From assembly GCA_049287005.1 (NCBI GenBank), contig JBAQEZ010000002.1:19268-83267 (forward strand): a stretch of 64,000 bases of DNA, read 5' to 3'. Source of the stretch: Candidatus Moraniibacteriota bacterium. Its GTDB lineage: Bacteria > Patescibacteriota > Minisyncoccia > Moranbacterales > UBA1568. This document shows, one piece after another, positions 5,987 to 47,808 of the stretch. Position numbers and translations under genes: made by a program. The notes under the pieces were generated by a model that did no database searches, was not told the origin of the DNA, and saw nothing but the letters and a program-made list of their open reading frames with translations. The first letter of the stretch is position 1. Every line of letters begins with the position of its first letter.

Positions 5987-7060
5987 ATGTCAAAAAGGCT
6001 TTTTTCGGGGATCCAGCCGTCGGGCAACCTGCACTTGGGGAACTATCTCGGGGCTATCAAACAGTGGGTAGAGCTTCAGGAGAGCAATGAGGCCATCTTT
6101 TGTATCGTCGATCTGCACGCTATCACGGTGCCGCAGGATCCGGCAGAACTACGGAAGAAGATATTGGAGATCGCCAAAGTCTATCTCGCCGCCGGTATCG
6201 ATCCGCAGAAGGCGACTTTGTTCATCCAGTCGCACGTCAAAGAACACGCTGAGCTCGGATGGATTCTGAACACGATTACCAAGAATGGCGATCTGACAAA
6301 AATGACACAATTTAAGGACAAATCAGGCATCTCTGAAATCGAGGTTGACGCAAAAGATGAAGTTGGGAAAGAAAGAGGTGAAGCTGCTGAAATGTATAAC
6401 CGTGAAAATCGGCAGTGGAAAGAGAGATTTAATTCTGTCGGAGTCGGGCTTTTCGATTATCCTGTGCTTATGGCGGCGGACATCTTGCTTTACGATACAG
6501 AGCTTGTTCCCGTAGGAAAGGATCAGATGCAACATATCGAATTGGCGCGTGATTTGGCGAAACGTTTCAACAAACGTTTCGGAGAAACATTCGTGATTCC
6601 GGAAGGCAAGCTTTCCAAAGAAGGCGCGCTTATTATGGGGCTCGATGATCCGATGAAAAAAATGTCGAAGTCTGCTCCGAGTGAATATAACTATATTGCG
6701 CTTACTGACAATGCCGAGACGGTACGGAAAAAGATAAAAAAAGCGGTTACCGATAGTGGTTCGGAAATTGTGTATAGTGACGAGAAGCCTGCTTTGAAAA
6801 ATCTTATCAATATTTACATGCTTCTTTCTGGAAAATCTACTGGAGATATCCAGGTAATGTACCGGGGTAAAGGGTATGGTGATTTTAAAAATGACTTGGC
6901 GGAAGTTATCGTGAATTTTCTCACGCCATTTCAAGAACGTTTGAGCGGTATTCCTGATGAAGAGGTTTTGGCGGTTCTCAAATCTGGTGCTGAAAAAGCC
7001 CGTTCTTTAGCAGGGGTAAAAATGAAACAAGTGAGCGAACGAGTCGGACTCCTTGTCTAA
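5987..7060 (+). CDS. trpS: tryptophan--tRNA ligase (class I; HIGH-like GNLHLGNY and KMSKS motifs) with an insertion of about 30 aa after the KDKS motif
   Basis: N-terminal …GIQPSGNLHLGNYLGA…, KMSKS at the C-terminal third, and the conserved GLFDYPVLMAADILLY block. Confidence 0.9.
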   Translation: MSKRLFSGIQPSGNLHLGNYLGAIKQWVELQESNEAIFCIVDLHAITVPQDPAELRKKILEIAKVYLAAGIDPQKATLFIQSHVKEHAELGWILNTITKNGDLTKMTQFKDKSGISEIEVDAKDEVGKERGEAAEMYNRENRQWKERFNSVGVGLFDYPVLMAADILLYDTELVPVGKDQMQHIELARDLAKRFNKRFGETFVIPEGKLSKEGALIMGLDDPMKKMSKSAPSEYNYIALTDNAETVRKKIKKAVTDSGSEIVYSDEKPALKNLINIYMLLSGKSTGDIQVMYRGKGYGDFKNDLAEVIVNFLTPFQERLSGIPDEEVLAVLKSGAEKARSLAGVKMKQVSERVGLLV

Positions 7061-7762: not shown

Positions 7763-8125
7763 CTAGGATGGGATTCCCCGCGCGTAGAGGTGCTGGCGGC
7801 AATGGATTTCCAAAGCGATAAAGAAGAGGATTTTCTGACGCGTTTCCGGCATATCGGCGATGACGATTTGCAGGTGGGCCAGTTTTTCTTGGGAGCGTAG
7901 GAAGAGGTGGTCCAACAATCGTCTGTATGGCAGGATTTTCCCAGGACGGAATCTCTTGATTTTCTCGAACAGGCGCTGATATTCTCCTACGCGCCAGGGG
8001 ATATCCGAATCCGGATCGATCAGGTAACCCTCGAGGAGCAATCGTTCCCCCCGGCGGATAACCTGGTGATCGTCGAGCGCTTCCATCAGAGCGCCGACTT
8101 GCTTGAGGGCGCTTTCTGTCGTCAT
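7763..8125 (-). CDS. hypothetical protein (120 aa), convergent with the preceding ORF
   Basis: This frame has a balanced composition. The overlapping 146-aa ORF at 7698..8138 is R/P-rich and looks like an antisense artefact. Confidence 0.3.
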   Translation of the reverse strand: MTTESALKQVGALMEALDDHQVIRRGERLLLEGYLIDPDSDIPWRVGEYQRLFEKIKRFRPGKILPYRRLLDHLFLRSQEKLAHLQIVIADMPETRQKILFFIALEIHCRQHLYARGIPS

Positions 8126-40741: not shown

Positions 40742-40770
40742 TTGACATGAACATAGAGTCATATTATTAT
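40742..40770 (+). promoter_or_regulatory. candidate promoter TTGACA-17 bp-TATTAT; the predicted transcription start coincides with the lexA ATG (possible leaderless mRNA)
   Basis: Hexamers read from the sequence. The first in-frame ATG of the LexA winged helix (40777) lies 7 nt after the -10. Confidence 0.35.
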
Positions 40771-40776
40771 TTAATT

Positions 40777-41418
40777 ATGAAAAAATATCTTACTCTAAAA
40801 CAAAAAACTGTTCTCGAATTGATTTACGACTCTATCCGTTCTTCCGGTTTCCCGCCCACCCTAGCCGATCTAAAAGAGGAATTAGGAGTGTCTTCCAATC
40901 AGTCGGTTTTGAATTTTTTAGAAATATTAGGGAAAAAGGAATGTATAAAACGTGAAGAAGGGCAGGCACGGAGCATTACAATTTTGCCTTTAGGATATAG
41001 AGAAATAGGGAAAGAACCTCTGGTGCGGGTAACTGGTTATTCAGCAGCTGGACCCTACATTGAATCTTTTACAGAAACTTTGAATTGGTTGCCGCTTGAT
41101 GGGCAGGTCTTGGAGAACGAACAAATAAACCAAGCGCGAGACAAGGTGTTTATTATCCAAGTTATTGGTGATTCTATGATTAATGTGGGAATTAATGATG
41201 GTGATAATTTATTAGTCAAAGAATCCAGGGAGTATAAAAGTGGAGATATTGTTCTCGCGCGAACTGATGATGGCGTAACGGTAAAGCGTTTTATTGCTGA
41301 GGGAGGCAAAAGATATTTAAAGCCGGAAAATCCTACCTATGAAAAAATGGTAATTATCCCCGGCGAAGTACAATTTCAGGGCAAGATAATTCTAAACCTT
41401 TCTAAAATAAACCAATAA
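40777..41418 (+). CDS. lexA: LexA-family repressor (LexA winged-HTH + S24 autopeptidase)
   Basis: N-terminal LexA_DNA_bind pattern (LTLKQKTVLELIYDSIRSSGFPPTLADLKEEL…), S24 catalytic Ser (GDSM) and Lys (VKRF). AT-rich codon usage like the rest of the island. Confidence 0.75.
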   Translation: MKKYLTLKQKTVLELIYDSIRSSGFPPTLADLKEELGVSSNQSVLNFLEILGKKECIKREEGQARSITILPLGYREIGKEPLVRVTGYSAAGPYIESFTETLNWLPLDGQVLENEQINQARDKVFIIQVIGDSMINVGINDGDNLLVKESREYKSGDIVLARTDDGVTVKRFIAEGGKRYLKPENPTYEKMVIIPGEVQFQGKIILNLSKINQ

Positions 41419-41419
41419 T

Positions 41420-43336
41420 ATGGTGGATCAAAAAAAGACCAGTGAAATTTTTGGAAAAATATTTCGGAATCCGGATATGCAATTTGGGCTTTCCGTATTC
41501 GAGGGAATTATTCCGGAACAAGTGCTGAACCTTTTCGAAAAAGAGGGTAAATATTATTTGGAATGTTTAAAAAGAAAGAAAAGTATTCAAGCCAAGCCGG
41601 AAGAAATTGTGCGTCAACTTATGATCCATAAACTGGTTAATTTTTACAAATACCCGCTTGATCGAATGGATGTGGAGGTGGATGTGCAATTCGGTCGAGA
41701 AATCGGATCTAAGAGAGCAGACATTGTTATTTATCGCGAAGATGGTCGGACGCCGTATCTCGTGGTGGAAGTCAAGAAACCAGATGTCAAAGACGGTCTG
41801 GGCCAGCTCAAAAGCTATGCCAATGCGACTGGCGCTCCGATTCTGATACTTACTGATGGGAAAATACAAAATAATATTTTGCGAACTGACCCGAATCTTT
41901 TTGAGGATCTCCCGGAAATTCCGAAGTTTAATGAAACCGTGGAAGACGTGCGATCCAAAAAACTGACTTACAATGATCTTGATGAGATTCCCAATTTGCA
42001 ACAGCTTGTTTATGATTTGCAGGAAGTTGTGCTGGCAAACAGCGGCGTGGACTCCTTCGATGAAATTTTCAAGTTGATCTATGCCAAATTGTATGATGAA
42101 ATTGAAACTCCCAGAAATGAAAACAGGAGGTTCAGGGTAATTGCGGGCGTAACCAACAAAGAGAATCTCAATAATATTCAGCGCCTTTTTGAAGATGCTA
42201 AAAATCAGTGGCGCGATGTGTTCAAGGCGAATGATGAGATAGAGATTCCGGAAAATACGATTGTACCGGCAGTGTCGCTTCTGCAAAAATATCGACTTTT
42301 TGGTTCCAACCTTCAAATTATTGACGACGCTTTTGAATATCTCATCAATTTGGATGCCAAGGGAGAAAAGGGGCAATATTTCACACCACGCCACGTGATC
42401 GATATGGCGGTAAAAATGTTTCACCCCACTTCCAAAGATTTTATTATTGACACCGCCGCGGGCAGTTGCGGATTTTTGCTCCACGCGATGCAATATGTTT
42501 GGAATAATGAGCTTAATAAAGAAAAGTGGGGAGAAAGTTATGGTGTGAAGCAGAAAGATTATGCGGAAAAACGTTTGTTTGGTATAGATTTTGATCCGCG
42601 TTCAGTAAAAATCGGAAAAGCGATGATGCTTATTGCCGGAGACGGGAAAACAAATGTTTCTTATGCCGACTCTCTTGATAGCGAAGTATGGAATGAGGAC
42701 GTGAAGGCGAGGTTCAGGCCGTTTCTTAGAAATTTTAAAGACCATGAAGAAAATAGAAGAAATCAGGAAAAGATGGCTGATTTTAATTTTGATATCGTAC
42801 TTACTAATCCGCCGTTTGCTGGAGAGAAAAAAGGCGTGATTCTCAATCGGTATGATCTTGGGTTCAAGTGGGACAAAGATTTTCAAAAAACATCCAAACA
42901 TCAAAACAAAGTTTCACGCGATGTACTTTTTATCGAACGGGATTTGAATTTCTTGAAGCCAGGCGGGCGAATGGCCATTGTTTTGCCGCAAGGAGTTTTG
43001 AATAATACGCAGATGGAGTATGTCCGCAAGTTTGTCATGAATAAAGCAAAAATTTTGGCGGTGGTGGGGCTTCACGGAAATACTTTCAAACCGCACACGG
43101 GCACAAAAACATCCGTTTTGTTTTTGCAAAAATGGGGTGGTGAAGCTGGCGAGCCACAAGTGGATTACCCGATTTTTATGGCTGTATCCAAAAAGGGCGG
43201 CAAAGATACTTCTGGCGAATATGTTTATAGAAAAGATAGCGAGGGGAATGTGATGTATGACGATTGGGGGAAAAAAATCATTGACCATGATCTAGATGAA
43301 ATCGCGGAGGAGTTTTTGAATTTTATGAAAAAATAA
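41420..43336 (+). CDS. restriction-modification protein: N-terminal PD-(D/E)xK/HSDR_N-like nuclease domain fused to gamma-class N6-adenine DNA methyltransferase (BcgI-A-like, or HsdM with N-terminal nuclease-like domain)
   Basis: Residues about 95-150 (RADIVIYREDGRTPYLVVEVKKPD…ILILTDGK) match the D…EVK nuclease core. Motif I (IIDTAAGSCGFLL) precedes motif IV (NPPF). 638 aa. Starts 1 bp after the lexA stop. Confidence 0.75.
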   Translation: MVDQKKTSEIFGKIFRNPDMQFGLSVFEGIIPEQVLNLFEKEGKYYLECLKRKKSIQAKPEEIVRQLMIHKLVNFYKYPLDRMDVEVDVQFGREIGSKRADIVIYREDGRTPYLVVEVKKPDVKDGLGQLKSYANATGAPILILTDGKIQNNILRTDPNLFEDLPEIPKFNETVEDVRSKKLTYNDLDEIPNLQQLVYDLQEVVLANSGVDSFDEIFKLIYAKLYDEIETPRNENRRFRVIAGVTNKENLNNIQRLFEDAKNQWRDVFKANDEIEIPENTIVPAVSLLQKYRLFGSNLQIIDDAFEYLINLDAKGEKGQYFTPRHVIDMAVKMFHPTSKDFIIDTAAGSCGFLLHAMQYVWNNELNKEKWGESYGVKQKDYAEKRLFGIDFDPRSVKIGKAMMLIAGDGKTNVSYADSLDSEVWNEDVKARFRPFLRNFKDHEENRRNQEKMADFNFDIVLTNPPFAGEKKGVILNRYDLGFKWDKDFQKTSKHQNKVSRDVLFIERDLNFLKPGGRMAIVLPQGVLNNTQMEYVRKFVMNKAKILAVVGLHGNTFKPHTGTKTSVLFLQKWGGEAGEPQVDYPIFMAVSKKGGKDTSGEYVYRKDSEGNVMYDDWGKKIIDHDLDEIAEEFLNFMKK

Positions 43337-43349
43337 TTATTAAAATCAT

Positions 43350-43943
43350 ATGTTTAATCAAAGTAAAGACGGAATAAAGAGTGAAAAGATAATTTATATT
43401 TTTATTGATGCTTCAAATCTTTGGCAAGCACAGAAAGCTAAGGGGAAACTTTTTGATTACGAGAAGCTTAGAAATTTTTTGAAAAGCAAGTTTGAAGGAT
43501 CAGAAATAAAAGTTTTTTACTATACTGCATATCCTGCTGATGGGACGAGAAGTTACAGTACTGATGGGAGACATAAATTTTATACTTTTCTAAAGAAAGG
43601 GCTAGGTTTTGTTGTTAGAAAAAAGGAGTTAAAACGTATATCAGTAATTACTGACGAAGGACAAGCTATTGAGGAAAAGGGAAATATGGACGTGGAAATG
43701 ACCATTGATGTTATACACTATATGAAAAAATATGGTGTAGCTATTTTGTTCACAGGTGATTCAGACTTTTTAGCACTAGTGACTTATTTAAGAAACGGCG
43801 GTAAAAAGGTTTATATTTTTTCATCGGAAAATAATGTTTCTAGAGAGTTAAAAACTGGAGGGGATGGATACTTTGATGTGCTGAAAATCAAAGAAGACAT
43901 CTGGGGCAAGGAGTTAAAATATAGGTCTGAAAAAGCCGAATAA
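43350..43943 (+). CDS. NYN-domain (LabA/PIN-like) putative ribonuclease
   Basis: IFIDASNL, NMDVEMTIDVI and LFTGDSDFLALV acidic motifs of NYN/PIN-like RNases. 13 bp after the M gene stop. Confidence 0.7.
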   Translation: MFNQSKDGIKSEKIIYIFIDASNLWQAQKAKGKLFDYEKLRNFLKSKFEGSEIKVFYYTAYPADGTRSYSTDGRHKFYTFLKKGLGFVVRKKELKRISVITDEGQAIEEKGNMDVEMTIDVIHYMKKYGVAILFTGDSDFLALVTYLRNGGKKVYIFSSENNVSRELKTGGDGYFDVLKIKEDIWGKELKYRSEKAE

Positions 43944-43947
43944 AAAC

Positions 43948-43973
43948 AACCCTCCTCGCGGAGGGTTGCTCTT
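43948..43973 (+). terminator. weak terminator-like hairpin (AACCCTCC-tcgc-GGAGGGTT) with a poor U-tract
   Basis: 8-bp stem read from the sequence. Confidence 0.3.
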
Positions 43974-44097
43974 GGATGTAATACCCTTTCAGTTATGGCT
44001 AACCGAAAGACATTACAAATATAGCAGATTATAATGGTTTGTCAAGGGGTTTACGCTTTCATCAACTAATACACTTATTATTTATATAAATAACAAT

Positions 44098-44451
44098 ATG
44101 GAAAATCAAGACCAGGACAAACTGATGAGACTATATACGAGATTGAGTGCTCTTAAAAATAATTTATCAAAAGATCATGGTATTTTGGACACTTTTGTCA
44201 AAGAATATTACACAATCGTTAATGAGCTAGTCGAGCTAACAGGTTTAAATTTAGACGAATTTAAAATTCCAATGTCTGAGGTTAAACCATATCTAATTGG
44301 TAGAGACTATGATGGACAAAAGACTTATACGGAAGAAATATTTTGTAACGGTTCATTATTTTTTAGTAAATTTGATGCCTTGATGACATATTTTCAAATA
44401 AAATATTTATCAAAAGAAAATATGAAAATTGGCTTTAATACCAAAGAGTAA
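44098..44451 (+). CDS. hypothetical protein (117 aa), immediately upstream of hsdS (3-bp gap)
   Basis: Intact ORF with island-like AT-rich codon usage. No recognisable motif. Confidence 0.4.
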   Translation: MENQDQDKLMRLYTRLSALKNNLSKDHGILDTFVKEYYTIVNELVELTGLNLDEFKIPMSEVKPYLIGRDYDGQKTYTEEIFCNGSLFFSKFDALMTYFQIKYLSKENMKIGFNTKE

Positions 44452-44454
44452 TTT

Positions 44455-45816
44455 ATGAATTTTTCAATAATTCAAAAATCTCAACTCGAAGGCGCTTCGC
44501 GGCTTGATGCTGAATATTATCAGCCGGAGTTTCTAATGTTTGTAAACAATTTAAAGGGGTTTGAATTGCAATTATTGGAAGAAATATCTTCAAAGATAGA
44601 TGTTGGTTTTGTGTCTTCTATGGTAAGACATTTTTGCAATAATGGGGTACCGTTGCTAAGAACACAAAATGTTGATGAGTTTGTTACAGATTTTGAAAAC
44701 GGTATTGTTTATATTGACGAAAAGTTTCATAAACAATTAAAAAAGAGCCAAGTTTATCCCGGGTATGTTTTATTGGCGAGAAGCGGGTCAATTGGCAACG
44801 CGAGTGTTGTAACGGAAAATAATCCGATTGCAAATTCTGCAGATATTATTTTGATAAAACCAAAAGAAAACATCTTGCCAGAGTATTTGGCAGCCTTTTT
44901 AAATTCAAAATACGGTAGGTTTCAGATTGAGAGAGGATCAAGCGGGGGTCTTCAGGGGCATATGAATTTATTTAGTCTCGAAAAAATAATCCTTCCTGTT
45001 GTAAGTATTGATATCCAACAGACGATTAGAATGATAGTTTTGCATGGTCTAGATGCATTCGAAAATTCAAAATTATTATATCAGCAAGCCGAAAATTTAC
45101 TTTTAGAAGCATTGGGATTAAAGGGTTTTGATAATGAGGAAAAATTATCATCAATTGTGAATCTTTCTGAAATAGAGTCAGCTTGTCGTATAGATGCTGA
45201 ATATTATCAGCCAAAGTATAAAATCATTGAAGATAAAGTTAAAAATTATAATGTGCATAAATTAGGTGATTTGGTTTCAATGAAAAAAGGGATTGAAGTC
45301 GGGGCGGAAAAATATCAAGAAGAGGGAAAAGTTTTTATTCGGGTGAGCAGTATGACAAAATTTGGAATTGAGGAGAGTGATCAAAAATACCTGAGCGATA
45401 AATTGTATGAAAAATTGAAAGATGACTTTGAACCAAAAAAAGGTGAAATTTTACTGACCAAGGATGCAACTCCGGGGATTGCTTTTGTTTTGAAAAAAGA
45501 TATTCAAGGGATCGTGTCAGGTGGCACTCTTCGGTTGAAATTGAAAAATGTAGGAGTTGAGCCTGAATATTTGGCACTTTGTCTAAATTCCATTATTGGG
45601 CAAATGCAAGCCGAGCGAGATGCTGGCGGATCAGTCATCGCCCACTGGAAACCGGAACAAATTAAAAATGTTCTTATCCCGATTTTATCCAAGGAAATAC
45701 AACAAAAAATTGCTGATTTTGTTCGACAATCTCACGAAGCACGAAAAAAAGCAAAGGAATTGCTTGAGGAGGCAAAAAGAAAAGTTGAAGAAATGATTGA
45801 GAAAGGGGGTGAATAA
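44455..45816 (+). CDS. hsdS: restriction-modification specificity subunit (HsdS/BcgI-B-like) with two target-recognition domains
   Basis: Duplicated conserved segments (…RLDAEYYQP… and …RIDAEYYQPKY…) flanking two variable TRDs. C-terminal coiled-coil. Confidence 0.85.
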   Translation: MNFSIIQKSQLEGASRLDAEYYQPEFLMFVNNLKGFELQLLEEISSKIDVGFVSSMVRHFCNNGVPLLRTQNVDEFVTDFENGIVYIDEKFHKQLKKSQVYPGYVLLARSGSIGNASVVTENNPIANSADIILIKPKENILPEYLAAFLNSKYGRFQIERGSSGGLQGHMNLFSLEKIILPVVSIDIQQTIRMIVLHGLDAFENSKLLYQQAENLLLEALGLKGFDNEEKLSSIVNLSEIESACRIDAEYYQPKYKIIEDKVKNYNVHKLGDLVSMKKGIEVGAEKYQEEGKVFIRVSSMTKFGIEESDQKYLSDKLYEKLKDDFEPKKGEILLTKDATPGIAFVLKKDIQGIVSGGTLRLKLKNVGVEPEYLALCLNSIIGQMQAERDAGGSVIAHWKPEQIKNVLIPILSKEIQQKIADFVRQSHEARKKAKELLEEAKRKVEEMIEKGGE

Positions 45817-45817
45817 T

Positions 45818-46024
45818 ATGGCAAAATACAATCGGAATTCAGGGAAGCCGTGGACAGGGAAAGAGGTTGAGAAACTTGAAAAACTAGCGAAAGGAAATAC
45901 ACCTACGCGAGTTATCGGTCTTGATCTCGGTCGTACGGAAAATGCAGTTCGAAAGAAAGCATCACAAAATGACATTACTTTAAATCCGCCAAATCAAAAA
46001 CCGTATAATCGGAGGAAAAAATAA
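45818..46024 (+). CDS. small Myb/SANT-like HTH protein (68 aa)
   Basis: KPWTGKEVEKLEKLAKGNTPTRVIGLDLGRTENAVRKKAS fits the W-x2-EE-x-L…G…I…GR-x3-A tri-helical pattern. Same domain as the helicase C-terminus at 29.1 kb. ATG 1 nt after the hsdS stop. Confidence 0.4.
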   Translation: MAKYNRNSGKPWTGKEVEKLEKLAKGNTPTRVIGLDLGRTENAVRKKASQNDITLNPPNQKPYNRRKK

Positions 46025-46215
46025 AGTCATAAATAAAACCAGTGTGTCGATTCAGCTTTTCCGCTCTCCCTGTGAGATATCCGGAAAACAGCATAACGGC
46101 GTGACATTTTTCCAGCTCGAAAGAGTTGGTTTTTGTTTGGGTGTATAATTGGAAAAGAAAAGGGGTCAGGTACCTTTTTGAAAATTACGTAACCGGTTAC
46201 GTACAAGATGAAGCT

Positions 46216-46479
46216 ATGTATTACCTCTATATCCTCAAGTGTGCGGATGGGACGCTGTATACAGGGATCACGGTTGATCTGAAGCGGAGGATCACGGAGC
46301 ATAATAGTTTGGCGCTCGGGGCGAAATATACCCGGGGGCGCCGGCCAGTCATTCTTGTTTTTTCTCAGAAATTTCGCACCCGTTCCACCGCCTCCCAGGT
46401 CGAATCCCGCATCAAGAAACTCTCTCGCATTCAGAAGCTTGAGCTCATTGCCTCTGTTTATGAGGCCAAGAAAGTATAA
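46216..46479 (+). CDS. GIY-YIG nuclease family protein (short stand-alone, YhbQ/UPF0213-like), copy 1
   Basis: YYLYILKCADGTLYTGITVDLKRRITEHN… contains the GIY…YTG and RR…EHN motifs. Start trimmed to ATG 46216. Confidence 0.7.
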   Translation: MYYLYILKCADGTLYTGITVDLKRRITEHNSLALGAKYTRGRRPVILVFSQKFRTRSTASQVESRIKKLSRIQKLELIASVYEAKKV

Positions 46480-47422: not shown

Positions 47423-47503
47423 ATGCTCCTGATAGTCGTCATAGTGGTCGCGGTCCTCATCTTCGGAGCGGCTTTCATCGCGGTCTCCGAGAAGAAAAAA
47501 TGA
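47423..47503 (+). CDS. possible 26-aa hydrophobic micro-protein (MLLIVVIVVAVLIFGAAFIAVSEKKK)
   Basis: ATG…TGA ORF whose stop overlaps (ATGA) the start of the next ORF. A single TM-like segment. Below the size cut-off of the ORF track. Confidence 0.2.
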   Translation: MLLIVVIVVAVLIFGAAFIAVSEKKK

Positions 47504-47547
47504 AGAAAAAAATAAAAAAAATAGAAAAGATGGAAAGGATGGGAAAA

Positions 47548-47808
47548 ATGAAAAAAAATCTGTATGCTCTCTATATGCTCAGATGCGCGGATGGGACCCT
47601 GTATACGGGGATCACGGTCGATGTGCGCAGGCGGATCAGCGAGCATAACTCTTCGTCGCTGGGGGCGAAATATACCCGCGGGCGGCGACCGGTGAAACTG
47701 GTTTTTTCCAAGTTGTTTCGCAATCGCTCCGAGGCATCCGGAGAAGAGGCTCGCATCAAAAAATTGTCTCGCGCAGAGAAGCTCGCCATGATCAAGAAAA
47801 AAATATGA
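47548..47808 (+). CDS. GIY-YIG nuclease family protein, copy 2 (paralog of 46216..46479)
   Basis: LYALYMLRCADGTLYTGITVDVRRRISEHN…: same motifs. About 75-80 % nucleotide identity to copy 1 over about 230 bp. The track ORF starts at 47500 with a Lys-rich leader. Confidence 0.65.
   Translation: MKKNLYALYMLRCADGTLYTGITVDVRRRISEHNSSSLGAKYTRGRRPVKLVFSKLFRNRSEASGEEARIKKLSRAEKLAMIKKKI

Follow-up and report, generated by a model that had tools for sequence, protein, structure and literature searches.

What keeps an RNase in check when its gene lies inside a restriction-modification (RM) operon? The question was raised by a 64,000-nucleotide stretch of the genome of a Candidatus Moraniibacteriota bacterium (GCA_049287005.1, contig JBAQEZ010000002.1, positions 19,268 to 83,267 of the forward strand; the whole stretch is called the window below). 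Two open reading frames (ORFs), one for an NYN-domain nuclease and one for a 117-residue protein (p117), lie there between a fused nuclease-methylase gene and hsdS. A first-pass annotation had proposed that they form a toxin or abortive-infection (Abi) module, with the RNase restrained by the RM complex or by p117 as its antitoxin. The ORFs, the 13 nt separating the stop codon of the 638-residue nuclease-methylase gene from the NYN start, and the 3 nt between the end of p117 and the hsdS start were exactly as described there. The 154 bp between the NYN and p117 ORFs (43944-44097) are no empty spacer and hold a small RNA (sRNA) gene on the minus strand. The NYN gene and this sRNA gene are read here as an autonomous mobile cassette of the toxin-antitoxin or abortive-infection type, lodged in a cargo slot of the RM operon, a reading in which we place as much belief as doubt. 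The features concerned are the following:

43350-43943, plus strand: NYN (LabA-like, PF01936) nuclease of 197 residues, identified by Pfam, the proposed protein half of the cassette
43941-44011, minus strand: convergent sRNA gene of ~71 nt, identified by covariance model R1 and by covariation
44018-44045, minus strand: sigma-70-type promoter of the sRNA, TTGACA-16-TG-TATATT, identified by consensus match
43947-43968, both strands: GC-rich hairpin common to the converging NYN and sRNA transcripts, CAACCCTCC-TCGC-GGAGGGTTG, an intrinsic terminator on the minus strand
44098-44451, plus strand: p117, of unknown function, outside the NYN cassette and translationally coupled to hsdS

A minus-strand RNA gene downstream of NYN

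In the window, the sRNA begins with a 5' hairpin, P1, in which 44009-44000 pairs with 43995-43986 (10 bp). It is followed by a single-stranded stretch, GGGUAUUACAUCCAAG, at 43985-43969, nearly invariant across loci (consensus GGGUAUUACAUCCAAG(G/A)G), and by the terminator hairpin (43968-43947), after which a U-run overlaps the NYN stop codon. The minus-strand consensus has the same layout: a TTGAC(A/T)-N16-18-(TG)nTATACT promoter, 6 nt, a GUCUU that opens the 10-bp hairpin, then GGGUAUUACAUCCAAG(G/A)G, a hairpin (N3)CCCUCC-tetraloop-GGAGGG(N3) and the U-run. This element 3' of the NYN stop was kept in all loci, whatever the neighbouring genes.

The covariance model R1, built from the alignment, gave a single strong match in the window, at 43938-44011 on the minus strand (89.4 bits, E = 4e-21). 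Among 71 distinct sRNA sequences, 97.5% of the pair cells were canonical, with compensatory double changes in 12 of the 19 pairs (155 cells), a level that none of 500 shuffles and no slid register approached. The same two helices were recovered by RNAalifold. About 100 cells were G.U or U.G (33 at columns 8/25 and 17 at columns 53/64) and would be A.C mismatches if the plus strand were read; this bias indicates that the sRNA strand is the minus strand. The window sRNA, with its 5' end at 44011 and the U-run reaching ~43941, has a minimum free energy of -34.6 kcal/mol (z = -6.5).

The promoter of the window sRNA (44045-44018) matches 11 of 12 consensus positions, has an extended -10 (TG) and is joint best in the island. 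Over the loci compared, a sigma-70-like promoter with at least 9 of the 12 positions was found in 68 of 77, and the -10 box ended exactly 6 nt before GUCUU in 69 of 77. These features show that the 154-bp interval of the window encodes a minus-strand RNA with a promoter, a structure and a terminator of its own.

The A-run before the shared hairpin on the plus strand is the U-run after it on the minus strand, while no U-run follows the hairpin on the plus strand. Transcription of NYN should therefore continue past the hairpin into sequence antisense to the sRNA.

Several observations on the element and its surroundings are recorded here. The inner six pairs of the terminator, CCCUCC/GGAGGG (43950-43965), are nearly invariant and the outer three covary freely; the inner pairs resemble an anti-Shine-Dalgarno/Shine-Dalgarno pair, and their invariance goes beyond the need of a mere terminator. 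A DnaA-box-like 9-mer, TTATCCACA, with at most one mismatch, was found in 29 of 76 NYN loci, where it directly precedes the sRNA -35 box at a distance of about 80 nt from the sRNA core (loci L010, L014, L019, L020 and L022, for example; labels of this form denote genome or metagenome loci compared with the window, and coordinates after a label are those within that locus). Its position was nearly fixed in 20 loci, only 2.4% of control windows had it, and it is absent from the window copy. In Rfam 15, no family reached its gathering score for the window spacer, the best being BTnc231 with 30.6 bits vs. 80.4, and the Rfam scan of the whole window returned tRNAs only. The 16-nt sRNA core matched nothing in the window except the sRNA itself, so no trans target was found there. 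A plus-strand mini-ORF over the conserved element (LDVIPFQ...) was rejected, its length varying from 0 to 76 residues with a TAG at its start in five loci.

Linkage of the RNA to NYN

NYN relatives were sought in one genome per species, over the contigs of 185,579 species, by scanning with exact query peptides, so that the count is a lower bound. The scan gave 163 tblastn-confirmed NYN stretches, and 80 loci were kept. All 80 carried one R1 match (60-94 bits), always on the strand opposite to NYN, which started at the NYN stop or within ~50 nt of it, usually within 20 nt. The sRNA was also present in every NYN-bearing metagenome island, and no NYN of the clade without the sRNA was found among the 80 genome loci, the window and the related islands. 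In every locus examined, a structured, covarying, terminator-ended RNA was tied to one nearby protein family, NYN.

The sRNA, in turn, was found without NYN. In L094 and L099 only 178 bp separate the RM gene from hsdS, and they are taken up by the sRNA, whose promoter and flank are intact:

L094:5222-5401, with the same in L099:1866-2045: orphan sRNA, 92 bits
L096:3800-3900: degenerate orphan sRNA without NYN, 44.6 bits

An sRNA without NYN, but never NYN without an sRNA, is the asymmetry predicted when a toxin depends on its antitoxin.

It could also be thought that NYN is a stand-alone accessory or defence nuclease, not self-toxic, and that the sRNA is a cis-antisense RNA or terminator which tunes NYN and insulates the operon from read-through. 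The two genes converge on an overlapping terminator, the sRNA promoter is strong, NYN has none, and the genes downstream restart after a gap of mostly ~90-200 nt in nearly all loci, as would suit such an insulator. It would have no need, however, of an invariant 16-18 nt single strand or of a covarying 5' hairpin, nor would the sRNA be expected to outlast the loss of NYN, as it does in L094/L099. This explanation is judged improbable.

The NYN protein

Residues 15-175 matched the Pfam NYN family (PF01936) with E = 4.2e-22 and 79.7 bits against a cut-off of 24.2. The conserved acidic residues of an NYN nuclease, whose lack would have spoken against the first-pass annotation, are present: D20, D114, E116, D120, D137 and D139, together with N23, were invariant in 40 homologs, and on this alignment the nuclease active site is intact. 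An NYN domain usually marks an RNase. In Pfam, NCBIfam and PADLOC the NYN domain alone was detected, without any match to an ATPase or to PrrC. The nearest solved structure is 2QIP (LabA-like VPA0982), at E = 2.3e-07 on the sequence level. The AlphaFold2 (AF2) model had a mean predicted local distance difference test score (pLDDT) of 58.7, with 66-80 in the core beta-alpha units and less than 50 at residues 60-112, too poor for a fold search; the window NYN has an insert of ~45 residues (positions 60-105) that AF2 was unable to model. The protein shares its Pfam domain with 2QIP/VPA0982 and COG1432, but is set apart by its tight subclade, by the insert and by the sRNA gene.

Little has been assigned to these relatives. 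Bacterial NYN.COG1432/LabA-like proteins were listed as "function unknown", with no RM or RNA link, while bacterial NYN proteins were tied by gene neighbourhood to tRNA/rRNA processing (PMC5499597). In addition, an Arabidopsis poison-antidote locus has LabA-like NYN proteins as its killers, which gives a precedent for toxicity in the domain family.

The NYN proteins linked to the sRNA form a tight subfamily with 67-90% identity across Patescibacteria, the window NYN belonging to a subclade with 65% identity or more. Among database relatives, the best 120 were 71-100% identical, and all source-named ones came from Patescibacteria, Parcubacteria or unclassified "bacterium" metagenome-assembled genomes (MAGs). 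In a representative library at 50% identity, only 25 NYN sequences were found at E ≤ 1e-30, and beyond them ordinary NYN proteins with 30-40% identity. More remote members of the clade, P0130, P0131 and P0138 for example, have 45-55% identity. By these comparisons the family is small and tight, and not universal. All but a few of the 80 loci were labelled as Patescibacteria lineages; the labels of some other MAGs, Gammaproteobacteria or Nanoarchaeota for example, can probably be put down to errors of binning or naming. The cassette of Niastella vici DJ57, a cultured isolate of the Bacteroidota (L064, NZ_LVYD01000041.1:127168-143719), has an NYN of 70% identity and an sRNA of 90 bits.

The gap upstream of NYN was usually less than 20 nt, or the genes overlapped. 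No conserved sequence was found 5' of the NYN start, conservation beginning ~5 codons before YVFIDASNLW, and NYN has neither a promoter of its own nor a conserved leader. Owing to the 13-nt gap and the lack of a promoter, NYN is probably co-transcribed with the nuclease-methylase gene in the window, as had been suggested. In L003, where the locus adjoins a TraG/TrwB-like gene, the NYN gene has TAG for TGG at the invariant W25 (8046-8048), with the sRNA intact.

The 117-residue neighbour

No significant match for p117 was found in Pfam, NCBIfam or PADLOC, and a search of 5.8 billion clusters gave eight homologs in total. The order nuclease-methylase, NYN, p117, hsdS (M-NYN-p117-S) was seen in the window, L004 and L081 only, while p117 without NYN was found in L084 (M-p117-S), L083 (after an AAA_15/AAA_21 ATPase) and L085 (after DUF3800 and its RNA). 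In all cases that show what follows p117, the next gene is hsdS, the two genes adjoining or overlapping. Six NYN-bearing islands have, in the place of p117 directly before hsdS, a member of another family without a family match, named "c40" here, of ~100-125 residues, with a transmembrane helix at the N-terminus and a coiled coil:

L103:7614-7985, L002:6554-6859 and L005:9058-9387: "c40" proteins
L090:6516-6833, L091:7286-7603 and L124:1307-1633: further members of the family

In L014, three unrelated genes take the place of p117.

A pairing of NYN with p117 as RNase and antitoxin was rejected, since p117 is absent from most NYN islands and found without NYN, so that co-occurrence fails, and since the convergent RNA gene sits between the two. 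The conserved tight coupling of NYN and p117 that would mark a type II toxin-antitoxin pair was not observed. The structure prediction proposed for p117 yielded a confident AF2 model (pLDDT 85), with helices at 2-22, 31-48 and 85-104 and a beta-hairpin at 62-83, but the structure comparison gave no informative relative. The decoupling shows p117 to be a small helical protein coupled to hsdS and independent of NYN.

NYN inside and outside RM loci

The RM genes around the cassette in the window are:

40747-41418, plus strand: LexA-like repressor heading the island operon (LexA_DNA_bind and Peptidase_S24; NCBIfam lexA, 2.6e-39)
41420-43336, plus strand: fused HSDR_N_2 nuclease and N6-adenine methyltransferase of 638 residues, BcgI-like (Pfam, PADLOC)
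44455-45816, plus strand: HsdS-like specificity subunit of 453 residues (Pfam Methylase_S, PADLOC Specificity_I)

The 638-residue protein matched Pfam HSDR_N_2 (3e-24), N6_Mtase (2e-34) and also Eco57I, its nuclease part being of the PD-(D/E)xK type, and over its full length the PADLOC model MTase_I, a type I-class methyltransferase model (2.6e-185). HsdS matched Methylase_S with 1.2e-19 and Specificity_I with 3.4e-60. In terms of genes and domains, one polypeptide combines a PD-(D/E)xK nuclease with a gamma-type N6-adenine methyltransferase and the HsdS-like subunit is separate, which we take to be the BcgI-like (type IIB-like) design.

PrrC/EcoprrI and RloC are anticodon nucleases embedded in type I RM loci. 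By analogy, NYN could be an RM-dependent suicide RNase, inhibited by the nuclease-methylase/S complex and released by a phage that disables restriction, with p117 as antitoxin or adaptor. The resemblance lies in an RNase gene located inside, and possibly co-transcribed with, an RM operon, and the 13-nt placement after the RM gene recurs in related islands. In the 80 loci, the gene directly upstream of NYN was a BcgI-like RM gene in 5, a type ISP enzyme in 2 and a type III Mod in 2, and directly downstream a type III Res or a type I HsdR was also found; NYN is thus placed between mod and res, before HsdR, or after type ISP enzymes. An RM gene adjoined NYN in ~12 of the 80 loci (~15%, counted by hand from the neighbour tables) and lay within four genes in ~18-19, above the ~2-3% share of RM-type clusters among all flank ORFs. 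Other cargo of the same slot looks Abi- or toxin-like (RhuM, DUF3800, membrane proteins).

The same survey, which had been proposed as a check, also speaks against such a dependence. NYN recurs in islands of the RM-NYN-x-HsdS type and with four RM types, I, IIB-like, III and ISP, but ~68 of the 80 loci have no adjacent RM gene, and NYN lies there beside housekeeping or mobile-element genes. Different loci mostly had unrelated neighbours: CTP synthase, RNA polymerase beta' (RpoC), thymidylate kinase and MreC were found directly upstream, and tRNA-guanine transglycosylase (TGT, 5 loci), PolA, GatB, enolase, PPDK and RhuM directly downstream. The enrichment in RM operons is real but far from exclusive. 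Since the RM types are unrelated, one specific protein-protein latch is unlikely; p117 is missing from most NYN islands and occurs without NYN, and the constant partner is the sRNA. Moreover, NYN shares no domain with PrrC or RloC, having neither the ABC-ATPase-like N-domain nor the anticodon-nuclease C-domain, and obligate residence in RM loci was not found. A PrrC-like suicide RNase dependent on the RM complex is considered very unlikely, although its repeated occurrence inside RM operons still lends the idea some support.

PIN-like (VapC-type) nucleases coupled by transcription to the type I RM genes hsdM/hsdS, at times without a visible protein antitoxin, have been described (Matelska et al. 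2017, PMC5499597). Those modules belong to VapC-like groups and not to NYN.

Variable cargo in the gap before hsdS

The gap between the RM gene and hsdS was compared in 41 metagenomic loci with RM genes 63-93% identical to that of the window, and was read wherever the RM end and hsdS were both present. The order LexA-RM-NYN-x-HsdS recurred in L001, L002, L004, L005, L014, L081, L090-93, L111 and L124. The contents of the gap were:

L105, L106, L108, L109 and L119: empty, 31-70 bp
NYN-bearing islands: NYN, sRNA and a small ORF
L094/L099: sRNA alone (degenerate in L096)
L112: RhuM
L101/L102: weak DUF4145 protein
L097: weak PBECR3 RNase-like protein
L085 and L091: DUF3800
other loci: assorted transmembrane or coiled-coil proteins

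The gap is a variable slot for cargo, and the cargo is toxin- or Abi-like in look. To this extent the notion of a toxin or Abi module in an RM locus holds, but p117 is not the partner and the RM complex not the keeper.

DUF3800 occupied the slot together with an RNA gene of similar plan:

L085:2050-2228 and L091:7100-7285: DUF3800 with a convergent promoter (TTGACA-N17-TATACT/TAATAT), a hairpin and a terminator overlapping the DUF3800 3' end

The promoter-side flank of the L085 RNA is common to the NYN loci L001-L007, and an Rfam scan of L083-L085 gave no match at threshold. DUF3800 and NYN, two unrelated kinds of nuclease-like cargo, use the same design of a protein with a convergent sRNA in the same slot. 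Membrane and other cargo that abuts hsdS directly (e.g., L086, L087) leaves no room for a convergent RNA. In L091, a duplicated RM 3' end (6265-6332, encoding ...DHDLDEIAEEF...) lies between the NYN/sRNA cassette and DUF3800 and looks like a footprint of cassette exchange by recombination.

Signs of mobility in the cassette

In 76 of 79 loci NYN was poorer in GC than its flanks, with a mean difference of 6 points; only about 13% of the other ORFs of the loci were more AT-rich. Related islands differ in presence or absence of the cassette: L084 has M-p117-S with a 20-nt gap between M and p117 and no NYN. A TraG/TrwB-like coupling protein is encoded directly upstream of NYN in L003, and in L064 (Niastella) the cassette has a large serine recombinase gene at its side. 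Members of the same clusters were found near NYN in other loci (TraG-like in L056 and L064, recombinase in L012), while no integrase was consistently near NYN in the neighbour survey. L064 suggests cross-phylum transfer on an integrative element. Horizontal movement of the cassette, autonomous of RM, is the reading that best fits these genomic data.

The extreme conservation of both protein and RNA would also be expected if NYN and the sRNA were a non-toxic ribonucleoprotein, or an enzyme-substrate pair, of RNA processing in Patescibacteria, with an incidental position in the RM island. The invariance of the single-stranded segment hints at specific recognition, NYN often shares its strand with housekeeping neighbours, and bacterial NYN proteins have been linked to tRNA/rRNA processing (PMC5499597). 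The spread is patchy, however, with at least 163 stretches in 185,579 species and only 25 representatives at E ≤ 1e-30; the island is foreign and AT-rich, NYN has a GC content below its flanks, and islands that are otherwise syntenic differ in whether they carry it. TraG-like and serine recombinase neighbours and a copy in a Bacteroidota isolate also argue against a housekeeping role, which is regarded as unlikely, although it deserves some weight.

Mobility could also be the whole purpose of the locus, NYN being a homing-type nuclease of a selfish element and the downstream element a DNA site of recombination or insertion, similar to attC. A promoterless ORF with a structured 3' element, co-directional in many operons and lower in GC than its flanks, would agree with this, as would the duplicated RM 3' end beside the neighbouring cassette in L091, a sign of recombination-driven swapping. 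On the other hand, the fixed-spacing promoter, the U-run and the strong G.U bias point to RNA, no conserved left end, inverted repeats or consistent integrase were found, and NYN domains are typically RNases, which leaves this explanation only the slimmest chance.

Other features of the island

The island, from 40.7 to 46.0 kb, has a GC content of 0.32-0.41 vs. ~0.52 in its surroundings, confirming the AT-rich composition reported at first. Membership in the MADS systems was rejected, since NCBIfam MAD2 scored 307 of the 720 bits needed and MAD5 182 of 400, far under the cut-off, and a mad8 match to NYN was not significant (E = 0.015).

The LexA-like gene upstream of the RM gene is kept in most related islands, and as head gene it suggests SOS-type control of the RM operon; in L083 a LexA-C5-methylase fusion was found. 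The best plus-strand promoter, TTGACA-17-TATTAT (40742-40770; feature 40742-40777), overlaps the annotated start of the LexA-like ORF, so the true start is probably the ATG ~10 codons in (MKKYLTL...).

A 75-residue ORF without a family match (45797-46024) overlaps the hsdS end. It is kept after hsdS in L081 and L124 (62-64% identity), with a partial match of 25 residues in L091/L092, and its product could serve the island as a small regulator or DNA-binding protein. Immediately to the right of the island follow two small genes for GIY-YIG nucleases (46126-46479 and 47500-47808), with a GC content like that of the host, and in L001, too, a GIY-YIG gene (68% identity) lies beyond the island on the downstream side. 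Such surroundings may be a preferred insertion neighbourhood.

Comparison with RNA-antitoxin systems

Convergent antisense RNAs overlapping at the 3' end are known in type I loci such as B. subtilis txpA/RatA and bsrG/SR4 and the E. faecalis pAD1 par RNA I/RNA II, the last two RNAs sharing one bidirectional terminator; the toxins of such loci are hydrophobic peptides of fewer than ~60 residues. The window cassette is similar in that the sRNA, from its own strong promoter, runs toward the putative toxin gene with a 3'/terminator overlap, and in that the RNA gene can outlive the protein gene. The overlap of antisense RNA and toxin gene is present at the gene level, and that of the transcripts would follow from it. 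In contrast, the protein is a soluble nuclease of 197 residues and not a small hydrophobic peptide, the sRNA sequence is conserved far past the need of a cis-antisense, and no 5' interaction site was found.

The type III systems (ToxIN, CptIN, TenpIN) also combine an endoribonuclease-type protein with a dedicated structured RNA, are mobile and are linked to phage defence, and the single-stranded sRNA segment would suit direct binding to the protein. Their antitoxin, however, consists of tandem repeats upstream on the same strand, and the ToxN-type fold differs from NYN. No tandem repeats were found around NYN, where a single RNA lies downstream and convergent.

A further parallel is found in DUF3800 motifs I-XI, drum and skipping-rope, highly conserved terminator-ended RNAs tied to one nuclease-like family nearby, with unknown function (Weinberg et al. 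2017, PMC5737381). Here both the protein family and the RNA differ, with no Rfam model at gathering score, but the occurrence of DUF3800 with a convergent sRNA in the same RM-S slot (L085, L091) ties the NYN cassette to those motifs. The NYN/sRNA pair would thus belong to a known kind, nuclease or toxin with dedicated sRNA, and combine a new protein family and a new RNA in a hybrid type I/III geometry. In the literature searched, no description of the pair was found, nor is there an Rfam family for it.

Proposed mode of action

In the toxin-antitoxin reading, NYN would be expressed by read-through from the gene that happens to precede it, in the window from the lexA-RM operon, while an abundant sRNA from its near-consensus promoter would hold the RNase in check. 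Two ways, acting alone or together, can be envisaged. The sRNA could pair with the 3' end of the NYN transcript in a perfect duplex of ~70 bp, following type I logic with a 3' overlap, or its invariant single-stranded segment could bind the NYN protein directly, as in type III systems. Since the 16-18 nt single strand and the inner terminator stem are near-invariant and needless for a cis-antisense, sequence-specific recognition is indicated, most simply by NYN. Loss of the sRNA supply would then free the nuclease. In this lineage the cassette would have landed between a BcgI-like RM gene and hsdS. That NYN is toxic, that the sRNA acts as its antitoxin, and how the two would pair or bind are inferences.

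Several points weigh against this reading. An identity of 67-90% across deep Patescibacteria is unusual for a toxin and would also fit a housekeeping ribonucleoprotein. If the sRNA were a plain cis-antisense, the near-invariant single strand of 16-18 nt and the inner terminator stem would be left unexplained, and in a search for pairing with the 5' region and body of the NYN mRNA by unrestricted duplexfold, a crude method, the sites were scattered and none was conserved. No transposase, repeat ends or inverted repeats that would explain mobility were seen. In the IMG/VR viral contigs there was no strong R1 match, no tblastn match to the island proteins and no NYN of the clade; the 16-mer matches on those contigs were dismissed as chance. 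The nonsense codon of L003 is possibly an inactivated toxin or an error, the MAG having a coverage of 2.5x.

A more specific proposal, which we put forward tentatively and doubt more than we believe, is that a single structured sRNA binds the NYN RNase through GGGUAUUACAUCCAAG and silences it, the NYN gene being a promoterless rider on host operons and the pair an unrecognised class of RNA-controlled toxin. A disturbance of transcription or RNA turnover, such as that caused by a phage, would set off this toxin, which would serve as back-up abortive infection. If this were true, the DUF3800/RNA cassettes would be functional analogues, which would explain the "DUF3800 RNA motifs".

Implications

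The LabA-like NYN proteins have no known biochemical function in bacteria, and the linked conserved RNA offers a concrete starting point to find one. Niastella vici DJ57, a cultured carrier of the cassette, is a possible experimental host. The cargo slot of the BcgI-like operons indicates that RM operons can carry secondary defence or selfish genes. If the cassette is a toxin-antitoxin or Abi system, the RNA-antitoxin systems would gain both a toxin family and an RNA architecture that are new to them, in the Patescibacteria, whose defence and addiction biology is almost unexplored.

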